Shown in pieces: positions 12,240 to 22,756 of a stretch of 64,000 bases of DNA. A program made the position numbers and the translations under genes. The notes beneath the pieces were generated by a model. It searched no databases and was not told the origin of the DNA. It worked only from the letters and a program-made list of their open reading frames with translations. Numbering within the stretch: the first letter of the stretch is position 1; every line of letters starts with the position of its first letter. The stretch lies in contig JBIOUU010000186.1 in NCBI GenBank assembly GCA_044867345.1, forward strand, positions 3,895 to 67,894. Direction: 5' to 3'. Source of the stretch: Actinomycetota bacterium (GTDB lineage: Bacteria; Actinomycetota; UBA4738; HRBIN12).

Positions 12240-12244
12240 CCTTG

Positions 12245-12318
12245 TCGCGGGGACGGGATTTGAACCCGTGACCTCTGGGTTATGAGCCCAGCGAGCTACC
12301 GGACTGCTCCACCCCGCA
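12245..12318 (-). tRNA. initiator tRNA-Met (CAU)
   Basis: Cloverleaf read by eye: TGCGGGG-TGGAGCAGTCCGGTAGCTCGCTGGGCTCATAACCCAGAGGTCACGGGTTCAAATCCCGTCCCCGCG-A. Anticodon CAU, three G:C pairs closing the anticodon stem and A11:U24 are initiator hallmarks. CCA is not encoded. Confidence 0.9.
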
Positions 12319-20046: not shown

Positions 20047-20844
20047 ATGACCGTCGGAGAGCTCGTCTTCGCGAGCGTCGTGGATCAGCGGGTCTACGCT
20101 GCGCAGGGCGAACGGGGATCGAACGGCGTCTACCTCCTGGGCGTCCCCGGACGAGCCCTGCCCTTCGTGTTGTACCGGGGCTGGAAGATCGGGACCGGCA
20201 TGGTCACCGAGAGCGTGGACTTCTACGGACCGTCCGGGCGTCTCGTCTATCGATGGGGTCCGGTGGTCCGCCGGATGCTCGGCATGATGGATCTGACCGA
20301 GGAACGTGATCTCGTCGAGGACGCGCAGTTCGACGAGACGGGCATGTACGTCGTCTCGTTCGTCGTCGAGGACGAGATCGTGGGCGAGATCGAATGCCCG
20401 GTGTTCGTCCAGACCGCTCCGGCCAAGCTACCGAAGGACATCGAGGACGGCCTGCGAGGCTCCGACGTCATCTGGGTGGGACCGGAGCAGAACGGGAAGC
20501 CCAGCGCGGTCCCCGTGTGGTTCGTGTACCGGAACGGAAGGATCTACGTCCTGTCGAAGAAGGAGCCGGGGCCGGAGGAGCAGACCGTCCCCGGGATCCC
20601 CGGAGCGTCGGACGTGATCGTGGTGACCCGGTACAAAGCCACGAACCCCGAGCGACGGGGTCGCGACGCCGCGCTGCGGGAATTCCACGCCACCGTGCGG
20701 ACGCTGGAGGGCCCGGAGTGGGAGGAGGCCGCGAAGCTCCTCGTGGACCGGCGCCGGAGCCGGGCGGGGCCGCCGGCCGAGTGGATCGAGCGGTGGCGCG
20801 GATCGTGCGCGATCGCCGAGCTCACCCCGGTGATCCCGCTGTGA
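20047..20844 (+). CDS. hypothetical two-domain protein; C-terminal half resembles a split-barrel (PNPOx/DUF385-like) fold
   Basis: 265 aa. VPVWFVYRNGRIYVLS...VIVVTRY...ATVRTLEGPEWEEAAKLL resembles the flavin/deazaflavin split-barrel family. N-terminal ~130 aa unrecognised. Confidence 0.55.
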   Translation: MTVGELVFASVVDQRVYAAQGERGSNGVYLLGVPGRALPFVLYRGWKIGTGMVTESVDFYGPSGRLVYRWGPVVRRMLGMMDLTEERDLVEDAQFDETGMYVVSFVVEDEIVGEIECPVFVQTAPAKLPKDIEDGLRGSDVIWVGPEQNGKPSAVPVWFVYRNGRIYVLSKKEPGPEEQTVPGIPGASDVIVVTRYKATNPERRGRDAALREFHATVRTLEGPEWEEAAKLLVDRRRSRAGPPAEWIERWRGSCAIAELTPVIPL

Positions 20845-20866: not shown

Positions 20867-21883
20867 CTAGACGAGCTGGCGGCCGAGCGCGAGCGCCAGG
20901 GCGTTCAGGTCCTTCGACAGCTCCAACAGATCCCCAGGCGTGAGGGCCTGAGGCCCGTCGCAGAGCGCCTCGCCGGGATCGTGGTGGACGTCGATCATCA
21001 CGCCGTCGGCGCCCGCCGCGATCGCGGCGCGGGCCATGGGCGCGACGAGCTCACGGTGGCCCATCGCATGGGACGGGTCCACGATCACGGGAAGGTGGCT
21101 CTCCAGCTGGGCGACCACCATGCCGCCGAGGTCGAGCGTGTTCCTGGTGGCGGTCTCGAACGTCCGGATCCCTCGTTCGCACAGGATGATCTCGGAGTTT
21201 CCTCGCTGTGCGACGTACTCCGCCGCCATCAGCCACTCCTCGACGGTCGCGGAGAAGCCCCGCTTGAGGAGGACGGGCTTGCTCGTCGCGCCGACCTCCT
21301 TCAGCAGGGCGAAGTTCTGCATGTTGCGGGTGCCTACCTGGAGGGCATCGGCCCACGACGCCACGAGCTCCACGTCCCGTGGCTCCATCACCTCGGTCAC
21401 GACCGGTAGCCCGGTGTCCTCCCGGCATCGGGCCAGGATCTCGAGGCCTCGTTCCCCCAGCCCCTGGAACGAGTACGGCGAGGTGCGGGGTTTGTACGCC
21501 CCGCCCCGCAGGATCGTGGCGCCCGCTGCCTTGGCCCCTTGCGCCGCGGCGAGGGCCTGCTCGTCGCTTTCCACCGCGCACGGTCCGGCGATGATCGTGA
21601 ACGTCTCGCGCCCGACCGCGGCCGGACCCACCTTCACGGTCGTGGGCTGAGGGTGGAGCGCCCTGGCCACCATCTTGTAGGGCTTCCCCACCTGGATCAG
21701 GTGGTCCACGCCGGGGAAGTTGTCCAGGCCGAGCCCCATGAACGATGCCGTGTCGCCGACCAGACCGATGATCGTGTGCACCGCGCCGCGCGAGACGAAG
21801 GCCTCCCCGCCGGCCTCGCGGACCTTCTCGGAGACGCGTTCGATGTCCGCCTCCGTCGCGTCCCTCTTCATCACCACGACCAT
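20867..21883 (-). CDS. aroF: 3-deoxy-7-phosphoheptulonate (DAHP) synthase, type I-beta with N-terminal regulatory domain
   Basis: N-terminal ferredoxin-like domain (MKRDATEADIERV), then IIAGPCAVES and ILRGGAYKPRTSPYSFQGLG KDO8P/DAHP-synthase motifs. Confidence 0.9.
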   Translation of the reverse strand: MVVVMKRDATEADIERVSEKVREAGGEAFVSRGAVHTIIGLVGDTASFMGLGLDNFPGVDHLIQVGKPYKMVARALHPQPTTVKVGPAAVGRETFTIIAGPCAVESDEQALAAAQGAKAAGATILRGGAYKPRTSPYSFQGLGERGLEILARCREDTGLPVVTEVMEPRDVELVASWADALQVGTRNMQNFALLKEVGATSKPVLLKRGFSATVEEWLMAAEYVAQRGNSEIILCERGIRTFETATRNTLDLGGMVVAQLESHLPVIVDPSHAMGHRELVAPMARAAIAAGADGVMIDVHHDPGEALCDGPQALTPGDLLELSKDLNALALALGRQLV

Positions 21884-21920
21884 GGCAACCTCCGCATCCG
21901 GCGGGCCGCCCGGGAGGATG

Positions 21921-21948
21921 AGAAAACCCCGGGCGTTCGGCCCGGGGT
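21921..21948 (-). terminator. intrinsic-terminator-like hairpin inside the aroF 5' leader (candidate attenuator terminator)
   Basis: Minus-strand RNA ACCCCGGGC-CGAAC-GCCCGGGGU followed directly by UUUCU. Perfect 9-bp stem, about 28 nt upstream of the aroF RBS GGAGG (21893..21889). Confidence 0.55.
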
Positions 21949-21975
21949 CCCCTGCGCTCCGTTCGGCTCAGGCGA

Positions 21976-22029
21976 CTACGCCGGGCCCCGCCCGCCGTAG
22001 AAGAACCAGTCACCGAGGACGTGCCGCAT
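21976..22029 (-). CDS. candidate 17-aa leader peptide MRHVLGDWFFYGGRGPA (aromatic-codon sensor)
   Basis: ATG 22029 to TAG 21978..21976, translated codon by codon. TGG TTC TTC TAC lie at 22008..21997. Only a weak RBS (AGG), so it may be near-leaderless. Located between the divergent upp and aroF genes. Confidence 0.5.
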   Translation of the reverse strand: MRHVLGDWFFYGGRGPA

Positions 22030-22135
22030 CAGGCGCCTATCGTGCCAGGCCAGCACGGCGATGGCAACCGATCCGGCCTGGACCGATCCCGTCGCCCTCA
22101 GGCACGGCACCGAGGCTTCGGACTAGGATGCGCGC

Positions 22136-22756
22136 GTGTCGGTGACCGTGGTCGCGCATCCGTTGGCGGAGCACCTCCTGACCCAGCTCCGTGACCGCGA
22201 CACCCCCCCGCCGGTCTTCCGCACGCTCGCCAAGCGCCTGGCCCTGGCCATAACGTTCGAGGCCATCCGGGACCTCCCCACCGAGGAGGTCAAGATCGAG
22301 ACGCCGCTCGAGCCGACGACGGGCCGGGTCCTGGCCGACACCCTGGTGGCCGTGCCGATCCTTCGGGCGGGCCTGGGGATGCTGGAGGCCGTGACGGAGC
22401 TGTTCCCGGAGGTGGCCGTGGGCTACATCGGGCTTGAACGCGACGAGGCCTCCCTGCTTCCGCAGTCGTACTACCGCAAGCTCCCGGAGGTGGCCGGTCG
22501 CCACGTGCTCGTGCTCGACCCCATGCTGGCCACCGGGGGATCGGGCGCGGCGGCCTGCGCAGCAGTGAAGGAGGGCGACCCCGCGTCGGTCCGGTTCGTG
22601 TGCGTCGTCTCTGCGCCCGAGGGGATCGGCAAGATGCAGGCCGAACACCCGGACGTCCCCATCTTCACCGCCGCGGTCGACCGGCAGCTGAACGATCGCG
22701 GATACATCCTGCCCGGCCTCGGTGACTTCGGGGATCGGCTGTTCGGGACGGAGTGA
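22136..22756 (+). CDS. upp: uracil phosphoribosyltransferase
   Basis: VVAHPLAEHLLTQLRD N-terminus and PRPP-binding loop VLVLDPMLATGGS. GTG start. Confidence 0.9.
   Translation: MSVTVVAHPLAEHLLTQLRDRDTPPPVFRTLAKRLALAITFEAIRDLPTEEVKIETPLEPTTGRVLADTLVAVPILRAGLGMLEAVTELFPEVAVGYIGLERDEASLLPQSYYRKLPEVAGRHVLVLDPMLATGGSGAAACAAVKEGDPASVRFVCVVSAPEGIGKMQAEHPDVPIFTAAVDRQLNDRGYILPGLGDFGDRLFGTE

Follow-up and report, generated by a model that had tools for sequence, protein, structure and literature searches.

The DNA ahead of the gene for 3-deoxy-D-arabino-heptulosonate 7-phosphate (DAHP) synthase (aroF) in a 64-kb stretch of an Actinomycetota genome (contig JBIOUU010000186.1; "the window" below means this whole stretch of 64,000 nucleotides) very probably works as a ribosome-mediated, leader-peptide transcription attenuator of the Escherichia coli trp type that controls this gene. 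The element is real and has a four-segment anatomy, in which segment 2 can pair with segment 1 (the 1:2 hairpin) or with segment 3 (the 2:3 antiterminator), and segment 3 can pair instead with segment 4 (the 3:4 terminator). The anatomy is conserved among relatives, all three helices covary, and the competing conformations have nearly equal energies. On the basis of these sequence features, termination in vivo and a response to the supply of aromatic amino acids, or to the charging of their tRNAs, are predicted.

The leader is encoded on the minus strand, as are all features in Table 1, which holds their coordinates. It opens with a 17-codon open reading frame (ORF) containing the run Trp-Phe-Phe-Tyr, and 27 nt after the stop codon of this ORF begins a GC-rich hairpin that is followed by TTTCT. 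An initial annotation of the stretch, made from its letters alone, had proposed an attenuator on the strength of these features. Each of them is present where that annotation had placed it when the minus strand is read directly, and the match that it noted between codon content and pathway stands, the Trp-Phe-Phe-Tyr ORF lying upstream of a DAHP synthase gene that is confirmed by Pfam. The picture was thus supported but incomplete: it was drawn without the 1:2 hairpin, without the longer antiterminator, and without a promoter-like element that abuts the ORF.

Conservation of the leader ORF

We compared the window with 80 loci that encode the same enzyme (61–91% protein identity), obtained by scanning one genome per species. 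They span uncultured Actinomycetota, genera of the Streptosporangiales, Glycomyces, Nocardioides, and metagenome-assembled genomes (MAGs) labeled Frankiales, Mycobacteriales, or Nanopelagicales. The nearest relatives are uncultured Actinomycetota, namely L045, a MAG, at 91% identity and L001–L004 at 81–82%; where we speak of the clade, counts refer to 14 members around the window. An aromatic-codon mini-ORF, its core a run of Trp, Phe, and Tyr codons, occurs upstream of the gene in 61 of the 80 loci, roughly 60–150 nt 5′ of the DAHP synthase gene (example peptides are MRTSFGYWFFYGGRGPA, MQGSSGYWFAYFGRDPG, and MRQQFWFWYGYRPGIRTVARQTMR), and a hairpin with a T-rich tail lies 3′ of the mini-ORF in 59 of these 61. 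Both kinds of conservation had been anticipated in the initial annotation. Cultured strains that carry a leader of the family include Nocardiopsis lucentensis DSM 44048 (L038), Microbispora siamensis NBRC 104113 (L065), Planotetraspora mira NBRC 15435 (L057), and Nocardioides szechwanensis (L053). Under a stringent criterion, at least four aromatic residues inside a five-residue window of a short ORF, such ORFs were found in 42 of 81 sense upstream regions. The controls gave none in 81 antisense regions, 1 in 810 shuffles, and none in 679 random segments taken from these loci.

Because the ORF, its frame, the aromatic codons, and the hairpin are kept in 59–61 of the 80 loci, and because the controls are near zero, chance is excluded as the source of this arrangement. 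The notion of a chance ORF beside an unrelated GC hairpin, for example a stabilizing 5′ stem-loop or an insulator between the promoters of aroF and the divergent uracil phosphoribosyltransferase gene (upp), draws on the window itself, whose fold and antiterminator pairing are both within chance when taken in isolation. It is scarcely credible in view of the family, since the leader accompanies the DAHP synthase gene also at loci where upp does not adjoin it, and the range of protein identities argues against recent transfers of one sequence or assembly artefacts. We also rejected the idea that the hairpin is a repeat or terminator of general use in the genome. The motif CCCCGGG-N(3-12)-CCCGGGG occurs once in the 64-kb window, and among the relatives it is present in 41 of the 80 loci, always just 5′ of the DAHP synthase gene, with a single extra match elsewhere.

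What does the leader peptide read? Trp, Phe, and Tyr are all represented in 47 of the 59 family leaders, and because the three are usually present together the leader is probably a multivalent sensor. Within the clade, all 14 members keep the start codon ATG, the frame, and the stop codon; leader lengths are 17, 18, or 19 codons with the stop counted in, and the differences amount to whole codons. The stop codon is TAG in 13 of the 14, TGA being the commonest across the family (35 of 59), and the end of the ORF carries a conserved pattern, Y-G/F-G-x-x-P-A/G-stop.

Codon choice differs between leaders and the genes that follow them. In leaders outside the window's clade (L018–L080; for example, L036:2814-2888), TTT makes up 54 of 129 Phe codons and TAT 38 of 91 Tyr codons, about 42% each, against 0.8% and 1.8% in the DAHP synthase genes next to them (Fisher p = 4e-32 and 3e-21, respectively). 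The window's clade prefers TTC and TAC, with TTT at only 3 of 40 Phe codons. The rare codons of the other leaders may reflect selection for slow decoding, sharpening the sensor, or for keeping the region unstructured. Leaders of the Streptosporangiales type (L025, L033, L036, L037, L040, L042, L047, L064, and others) have a tail in common, ...YRPGxRTVARQTLR-stop, which is conserved in its nucleotides as well and makes the inner stems of a long antiterminator hairpin in folds of the nascent RNA; in this model the constraint on the tail probably acts on the RNA.

Alternative helices and their covariation

The terminator hairpin folds at −19.4 kcal/mol on its own. Covariation was scored in an alignment (A2) of 38 distinct loci in which each segment was anchored only on its own invariant 4-mer. 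The terminator has 94.1% of its cells paired and includes 5 compensatory pairs, whereas slid registers reach at most 65.8%, and the covariation score of 0.259 (0.147 in shuffles) was reached by none of 500 shuffles. Past the stem, the T fraction at positions +2 to +4 is 0.83, 0.67, and 0.81, against a background of 0.165, in the motif-anchored, family-wide set. A generic finder of the strongest hairpin had given inconsistent structures, though it did bring to light that the 3′ arm can pair with a segment farther downstream; it was replaced by a finder anchored on the T-tract and then by motif anchoring.

The 7-bp core of the stem is invariant in sequence across distant orders, beyond structural conservation. 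Four segments of the leader, 21981..21987, 21940..21948, 21926..21934, and 21909..21914, all carry the palindromic core CCCGGG, and the need to serve two alternative pairing partners is probably what freezes the core of the stem. The last of the four, a fifth segment with respect to the switch, can pair with the terminator 3′ arm in a hairpin (21934..21908) that folds at −14.2 kcal/mol. It plays no part in the termination decision, because it is located past the termination point; a stabilizing effect on the read-through conformation is a possibility. A similar fifth segment is seen by eye in most clade members.

Facing the terminator is the antiterminator. The initial annotation had paired GGCCCGG (21987..21981) with the complementary CCGGGCC (21945..21939), a 7-bp antiterminator that proved real yet only the core of an imperfect hairpin of roughly 49 nt. 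The full hairpin pairs the stop codon and a conserved UCGCCUG block with a conserved CAGGGGAC block, which sits just 5′ of the terminator arm. It has positions 21948..21939 in common with the terminator 5′ arm, and the two structures are, as had been suggested, mutually exclusive, with compensatory changes in both. In a nascent RNA that still lacks the terminator 3′ arm (segment 4), the antiterminator reaches −31.3 kcal/mol. In the RNA from 21992 to 21921, the antiterminator conformation (−37.3 kcal/mol) and the terminator conformation (−38.8 kcal/mol) are near-isoenergetic.

In the 38 distinct loci, the antiterminator core has a covariation score of 0.119 against 0.062 in shuffles, none of 500 of which reach it, and slid registers pair at most 53.6% of cells. 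Its pair 6:31 is GC in 21 loci, AU in 8, UA in 1, and GU in 1. Three bases covary across the switch, namely those 5′ of the CCCG of the ORF, 3′ of the CGGG of the terminator 5′ arm, and 5′ of the CCCG of the 3′ arm: the combination is G/C/G in many loci, A/T/A in L001–L003, in L008 and L009, and in a Streptosporangium–Microbispora group, and T/A/T in L063. At the covarying position a codon alternates between GGC and GAC, so that Gly gives way to Asp with the pairing retained; because the amino acid changes and the pairing is kept, the constraint is on the RNA. Within the clade the extended helix has 87% of its cells paired, as compared with at most 55.7% in slid registers, and includes 4 compensatory pairs. 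Leaders also pair better with their own terminator arms than with those of other loci (−21.95 kcal/mol for cognate and −20.8 kcal/mol for non-cognate duplexes; 2 of 5000 permutations reach the observed value).

The 1:2 hairpin completes the set. It folds at −17.3 kcal/mol alone and is formed by all 14 clade members, pairing the region of the Tyr codon with the UAG stop and burying the 5′ strand of the antiterminator. In the clade its pairing extends to 88.3% of cells, whereas slid registers stay at or below 49.4%, and its covariation score of 0.099 (0.040 in shuffles) was reached by none of 500 shuffles. The substitutions include a change from G:C to U:G in three clade members, and L010, the sole member with a TAA stop, has a compensating C-to-U change, turning C:G into U:A. 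Pairing in the 1:2 hairpin accounts for the invariant GGG Gly codon and for the TAG stop of the clade.

A promoter-like element abuts the ORF. In the clade (n = 14) the −35-like hexamer is TTGCCA in 11 members, TTGTCA in 2, and TTGCCG in 1; a CAnnAT hexamer is conserved at the −10-like position, and TGn precedes it in about 8 of the 14. TTGCCA-N16-18-CANNAT has one match in the window, with 0.04 expected. A scan of the leader for consensus sigma-70 promoters returned nothing, its thresholds being unsuited to actinobacterial promoters. Other clades of the leader family, those with leaders of the Streptosporangiales type among them, show GCGC-TAnnnT followed by 7 nt and the ATG, a spacing typical of leaderless actinobacterial transcripts, which implies leaderless translation in those clades. 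For the window, the spacing predicts a transcription start 2–4 nt before the leader ATG, and a very short 5′ untranslated region is possible. Because the conserved element abuts the ORF, translation of the leader would be leaderless or nearly so, for which there are precedents, leaderless leader peptides being documented in Streptomyces and Corynebacterium (PMC8079986, PMC4046766).

Proposed switch and competing explanations

We propose the following model for the control of aroF. Transcription would start on the leader ATG or just a few nucleotides 5′ of it, and a ribosome would translate the 17-codon ORF as RNA polymerase transcribes the leader. When charged tRNA-Trp, tRNA-Phe, or tRNA-Tyr is scarce, the ribosome would stall on UGG UUC UUC UAC and cover segment 1, leaving segment 2 (21987..21969) free to pair with segment 3 as it emerges; the antiterminator would then tie up the terminator 5′ arm and allow read-through into the DAHP synthase gene. 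With an ample supply, the ribosome would reach the UAG inside segment 2 and mask this segment, whereupon segments 3 and 4 would pair and transcription would end in the U-tract, about 40 nt short of the start codon of the gene. If the leader were not translated at all, the 1:2 hairpin would form and then the 3:4 hairpin, again giving termination.

Constrained folds agree with these three states. Without a ribosome, the minimum free-energy (MFE) structure is the combination of the 1:2 and 3:4 hairpins; with the ribosomal A site on UGG it is the antiterminator; and a ribosome at the stop codon leaves the terminator as the sole option. On the assumption that a stalled ribosome protects about 13 nt 3′ of its A site, a ribosome with UGG, either UUC, or UAC in the A site either leaves segment 2 wholly free or covers no more than 2 nt of it.

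Several observations weigh against this interpretation. At 69% GC, the background of this sequence, hairpins come cheaply: the hairpin pattern occurs at least once in 13% of shuffled windows, and the fold of the whole 177-nt leader is uninformative at this GC content (z = −0.64), its MFE structure mixing in long-range pairs. The pairing between leader and 5′ arm is likewise no stronger than might be met by accident, 15% of shuffled leaders pairing the 5′ arm as well as the real window leader does. Across the family the mean z for duplex energy against shuffled leaders is only −1.1, the window alone not being significant, and in nascent-RNA folds the 5′ arm is sequestered in 83% of real loci and in 54% of shuffles, a measure that discriminates poorly. 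About 19 of the 80 orthologous loci lack an aromatic mini-ORF even under relaxed criteria (L013, L014, L016, L019–L021, L023, L031, L032, L034, L049, L051, L056, L059, L060, L066, L069, L075, and L076), both Streptomyces loci among them. A scan of the leader for consensus terminators reported nothing, the U-tract, UUUUCU, is short, with poor versions in some relatives such as L004, and the −10-like CACGAT deviates from the actinobacterial TAnnnT. Finally, the structures at the level of the clade come from the window sequence, a starting point that in itself favors them over the slid controls, and the compensatory changes amount to only a handful of independent events.

We relied on covariation because the comparison of duplex energies with shuffled leaders was weak, and the case rests on comparison with relatives because the window sequence alone is unremarkable. 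The terminator scan may have failed because a G-U pair lengthens the stem at the cost of one T in the tail. Given the roughly 19 loci without a mini-ORF, the leader has been lost or replaced in some lineages. Two of these loci, L013 and L014, have no mini-ORF, yet a GC hairpin followed by TTTTCAC is retained there.

The short U-tract, degenerate in some relatives, also raises the question of whether the hairpin terminates transcription by itself. The mini-ORF could instead, or in addition, govern Rho-dependent termination or polarity, with a translating or stalled ribosome blocking the loading of Rho and the hairpin serving as a pause site or structural element. Rho-dependent termination is prominent in Actinomycetota, where canonical intrinsic terminators are comparatively rare. 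Very few intrinsic terminators were predicted in Actinobacteria (PMC2965389), which we count in favor of this alternative. We nonetheless consider it improbable, though Rho may contribute: a GC stem with a T-rich tract is kept family-wide, with T fractions of up to 0.83 against a background of 0.165, three mutually exclusive, covarying helices fit an intrinsic switch and would be unneeded for control through Rho, and the leader abounds in G as well as in C, unlike a typical rut site.

Could the leader structures act on translation rather than transcription? They might alter access to the ribosome-binding site of the DAHP synthase mRNA, or the stability of that mRNA, without premature termination; the pairing of the fifth CCCGGG segment with the terminator 3′ arm, at the −14.2 kcal/mol given above, and an MFE structure of the whole leader that pairs part of the ORF region with the region of the ribosome-binding site would both be compatible with this. 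The Shine-Dalgarno sequence GGAGG lies outside all three conserved helices, however, and the long-range pairing is no better than in shuffles, as the z score of the whole leader attests. In addition, the stop codon of the ORF is about 90 nt from the start of the gene, too far for translational coupling or reinitiation, and the conserved T-tract past the stem would be left without a role. Translational control is therefore very improbable, and we return to the attenuator as the preferred account of the leader.

The invariance of parts of the leader could point to a different sensor. A nascent peptide, responding to free aromatic amino acids by a TnaC-like arrest, or an RNA-binding protein on the CCCCGGG/CCCGGGG hairpin could be suspected from the 7-bp stem core that is invariant across distant orders, from the conserved end of the ORF, and from the use of TAG in the clade despite the dominance of TGA in the family. 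RNA pairing explains these invariant nucleotides, the 1:2 and 2:3 helices between them covering every conserved codon at the end of the ORF: TAC pairs with TAG in the 1:2 hairpin, with the TAA variant compensated, the GGG and CCG codons form the inner stem of that hairpin, and the stem core has two alternative partners to pair with. Residues vary where pairing permits, as in the exchange of Gly for Asp at GGC/GAC, and the leader matches no protein-binding leader family in Rfam. We regard such a sensor as extremely improbable and retain ribosome stalling at the aromatic codons as the sensing step.

It is a separate question whether something acts on top of attenuation. A further layer of control behind the invariant CCCGGG core and the ORF tail in what would be a phylum-wide RNA family is unlikely, and so are the individual candidates for it, a trans-acting factor that binds the hairpin or an effect of the nascent peptide or the stop codon. 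We are equally doubtful of a version in which, in other clades, this layer would join with slowly decoded UUU and UAU codons to tune a single sensor of Trp, Phe, and Tyr.

Two other classes of leader RNA were considered and rejected. A T-box is at odds with the lack of any Rfam T-box match at E-values up to 10 and with the leader itself, which up to the terminator measures about 110 nt, not enough for a T-box, and already houses an ORF. A riboswitch found no support in Rfam either, neither the region nor the whole window giving a riboswitch match.

Known leaders and the surrounding locus

The closest characterized analogue is aroR-aroF of Corynebacterium glutamicum, likewise a short ORF with aromatic codons ahead of an actinobacterial DAHP synthase gene, at the same pathway step and with the same stalling logic. 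Its aroF product is, we take it, a type I-alpha enzyme, whereas the window gene encodes a type I-beta enzyme with a ferredoxin-like domain. The AroR leader, first noted in PMC4046766, reads Phe-Tyr-Phe upstream of aroF, and read-through rises when Phe is limiting (PMC11802643, summarizing Neshat et al. 2014); these reports bear out the mention of a C. glutamicum aroF attenuator in the initial annotation. The AroR peptide contains no Trp and is reported to respond to Phe and not to Tyr (PMC11802643), unlike the Trp-Phe-Phe-Tyr leader of the window and a family in which all three residues are the rule. By analogy, the window leader would work like aroR. The two are likened by description, and we do not assign the window leader to the aroR family.

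In its layout the element follows E. coli trpL (RF00513), whose four-segment architecture and placement of regulatory codons and stop codon are textbook knowledge. Both have 1:2, 2:3 antiterminator, and 3:4 terminator pairings with a U-tract, regulatory codons in or just before segment 1, a stop codon near segment 2, and termination predicted when the leader is untranslated. They differ in that there is no similarity in sequence or to the covariance model, that the window leader has codons for three amino acids and trpL for one, and that all pairing segments of the window carry one palindromic CCCGGG core. As judged from the promoter-like element, moreover, the transcript of the window probably begins with the ORF or only a few nucleotides ahead of it, whereas the ORF of trpL stands behind a Shine-Dalgarno leader.

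Multivalent attenuators such as those of ilvGMEDA and thr respond to several amino acids through one leader. As in these and in pheL (RF01859), the leader codons of the window mirror the end products of the pathway; unlike them, the window leader belongs to another phylum, precedes the gene for the first step of a common pathway and not that of a terminal branch, and has no match in Rfam. The pheL leader of E. coli is described in PMC3082878. Nearer in phylogeny are actinomycetotal attenuators with leaderless leader peptides, namely ilvL, trpL, and leuL (Corynebacterium and Streptomyces; PMC8079986, PMC1262725), in which a short ORF at or next to the transcription start is followed by hairpins. 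The other clades of our family, with TAnnnT, 7 nt, and ATG, resemble these, and the window clade differs in that its −10-like element ends 9 nt before the ATG.

Searches for an earlier account of the element returned little. Rfam covariance-model searches (cmscan) of 21500..22500 at E-values up to 10 gave no leader-family match on the element, Trp_leader (RF00513) and Phe_leader (RF01859) included, and a scan of the whole window at the gathering thresholds of Rfam 15 gave no leader, T-box, or riboswitch, only a tRNA. The aro genes are absent from a 2005 survey of actinobacterial attenuators and from a survey of premature terminators, as is an aro leader from a table of Streptomyces lividans attenuators. 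The C. glutamicum aroR case was the only one to emerge from the literature, and we found no account of such a leader ahead of a type I-beta DAHP synthase in the searchable literature, outside which most subscription papers lie, so that an earlier description is possible. It appears, then, that a conserved actinobacterial leader family has gone unannotated, the mechanism itself being textbook.

What would such a family mean for the pathway? DAHP synthase is the entry enzyme that commits carbon to the whole aromatic pathway, and its ferredoxin-like domain also provides allosteric control. If the model holds, entry into the pathway would be gated through one leader, whose Trp, Phe, and Tyr codons together register the charging of all three tRNAs. 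The element spans many actinomycetotal lineages, among them makers of natural products derived from aromatic precursors, and because no Rfam family matches it and no description was found, a covariance model would improve annotation. It also offers a clean four-segment attenuator of the trp type outside the Proteobacteria, with covariation in support of three helices. The principle will not surprise a specialist; what merits description is how widely the family occurs, its leader with codons for three amino acids, the palindromic core, and the covariation of the three helices. Removal of the leader would be a direct engineering handle for greater flux through the shikimate pathway, comparable to aroR, which was removed in engineered C. 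glutamicum to deregulate aroF (PMC7356990).

Table 1. Positions of the leader elements and the regulated gene in the window
Feature	Position	Strand	Basis and remarks
−35-like hexamer TTGCCA	22062..22067	−	Conservation in the clade; about 32–33 nt from the leader ATG
−10-like TGG + CACGAT, extended −10 shape	22039..22047	−	Ends 9 nt before the leader ATG; CACGAT at 22044..22039; spacer to TTGCCA 17 nt
Leader ORF, 17 codons + TAG, MRHVLGDWFFYGGRGPA	21976..22029	−	Read directly; ATG 22029..22027, TAG 21978..21976; kept throughout the clade
Regulatory codons TGG TTC TTC TAC (Trp, Phe, Phe, Tyr)	21997..22008	−	Read directly; runs of aromatic codons in relatives
1:2 hairpin CUACG-G-CGGGC / GGG / GCCCG-G-CGUAG	21976..22000	−	Fold and clade covariation
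2:3 antiterminator hairpin	21939..21987	−	5′ strand 21987..21969, including the stop codon; 3′ strand 21954..21939
3:4 terminator hairpin, 9-bp stem ACCCCGGGC/GCCCGGGGU, loop CGAAC	21926..21948	−	Fold and covariation; DNA arms ACCCCGGGC (21948..21940) and GCCCGGGGT (21934..21926)
U-tract UUUCU, extending the paired U at 21926	21921..21925	−	Read directly
Fifth CCCGGG segment, 3′ of the U-tract, a possible partner of the terminator 3′ arm	21909..21914	−	Fold
Shine-Dalgarno GGAGG of the DAHP synthase gene	21889..21893	−	Read directly; 5 nt before the ATG; outside all three helices
Regulated gene, type I-beta DAHP synthase (aroF)	20867..21883	−	Pfam; start ATG at 21883

The regulated gene encodes a protein of 338 amino acids with an N-terminal ferredoxin-like domain, matching the Pfam families PF00793 (1.9e-81) and PF18152 (1.7e-18). 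Divergent from it is upp (22136..22756, plus strand), which Pfam identifies as a uracil phosphoribosyltransferase gene (PF14681). The two flanking genes and the spacer of 252 nt between them are as the initial annotation had them. From the leader ATG to the start of upp there are about 106 nt, common to both divergent promoters. The divergence of upp and the DAHP synthase gene is kept in 10 loci (L001–L007, L009, L012, and L045), all in the window's clade, and in none elsewhere. We therefore rejected a functional tie between the leader and upp, which adjoins only in this clade, the leader being far more widespread.

Reading the window, we found no minus-strand gene upstream that could own the hairpin as its 3′ terminator. 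On the other side, a 265-amino-acid ORF (20047..20844, plus strand), for which a Pfam search gave no match, is convergent with the DAHP synthase gene, and because of this orientation the gene is probably monocistronic in the window. The sole RNA gene detected in the 64 kb is a tRNA-Met with anticodon CAT (12244..12318, minus strand).

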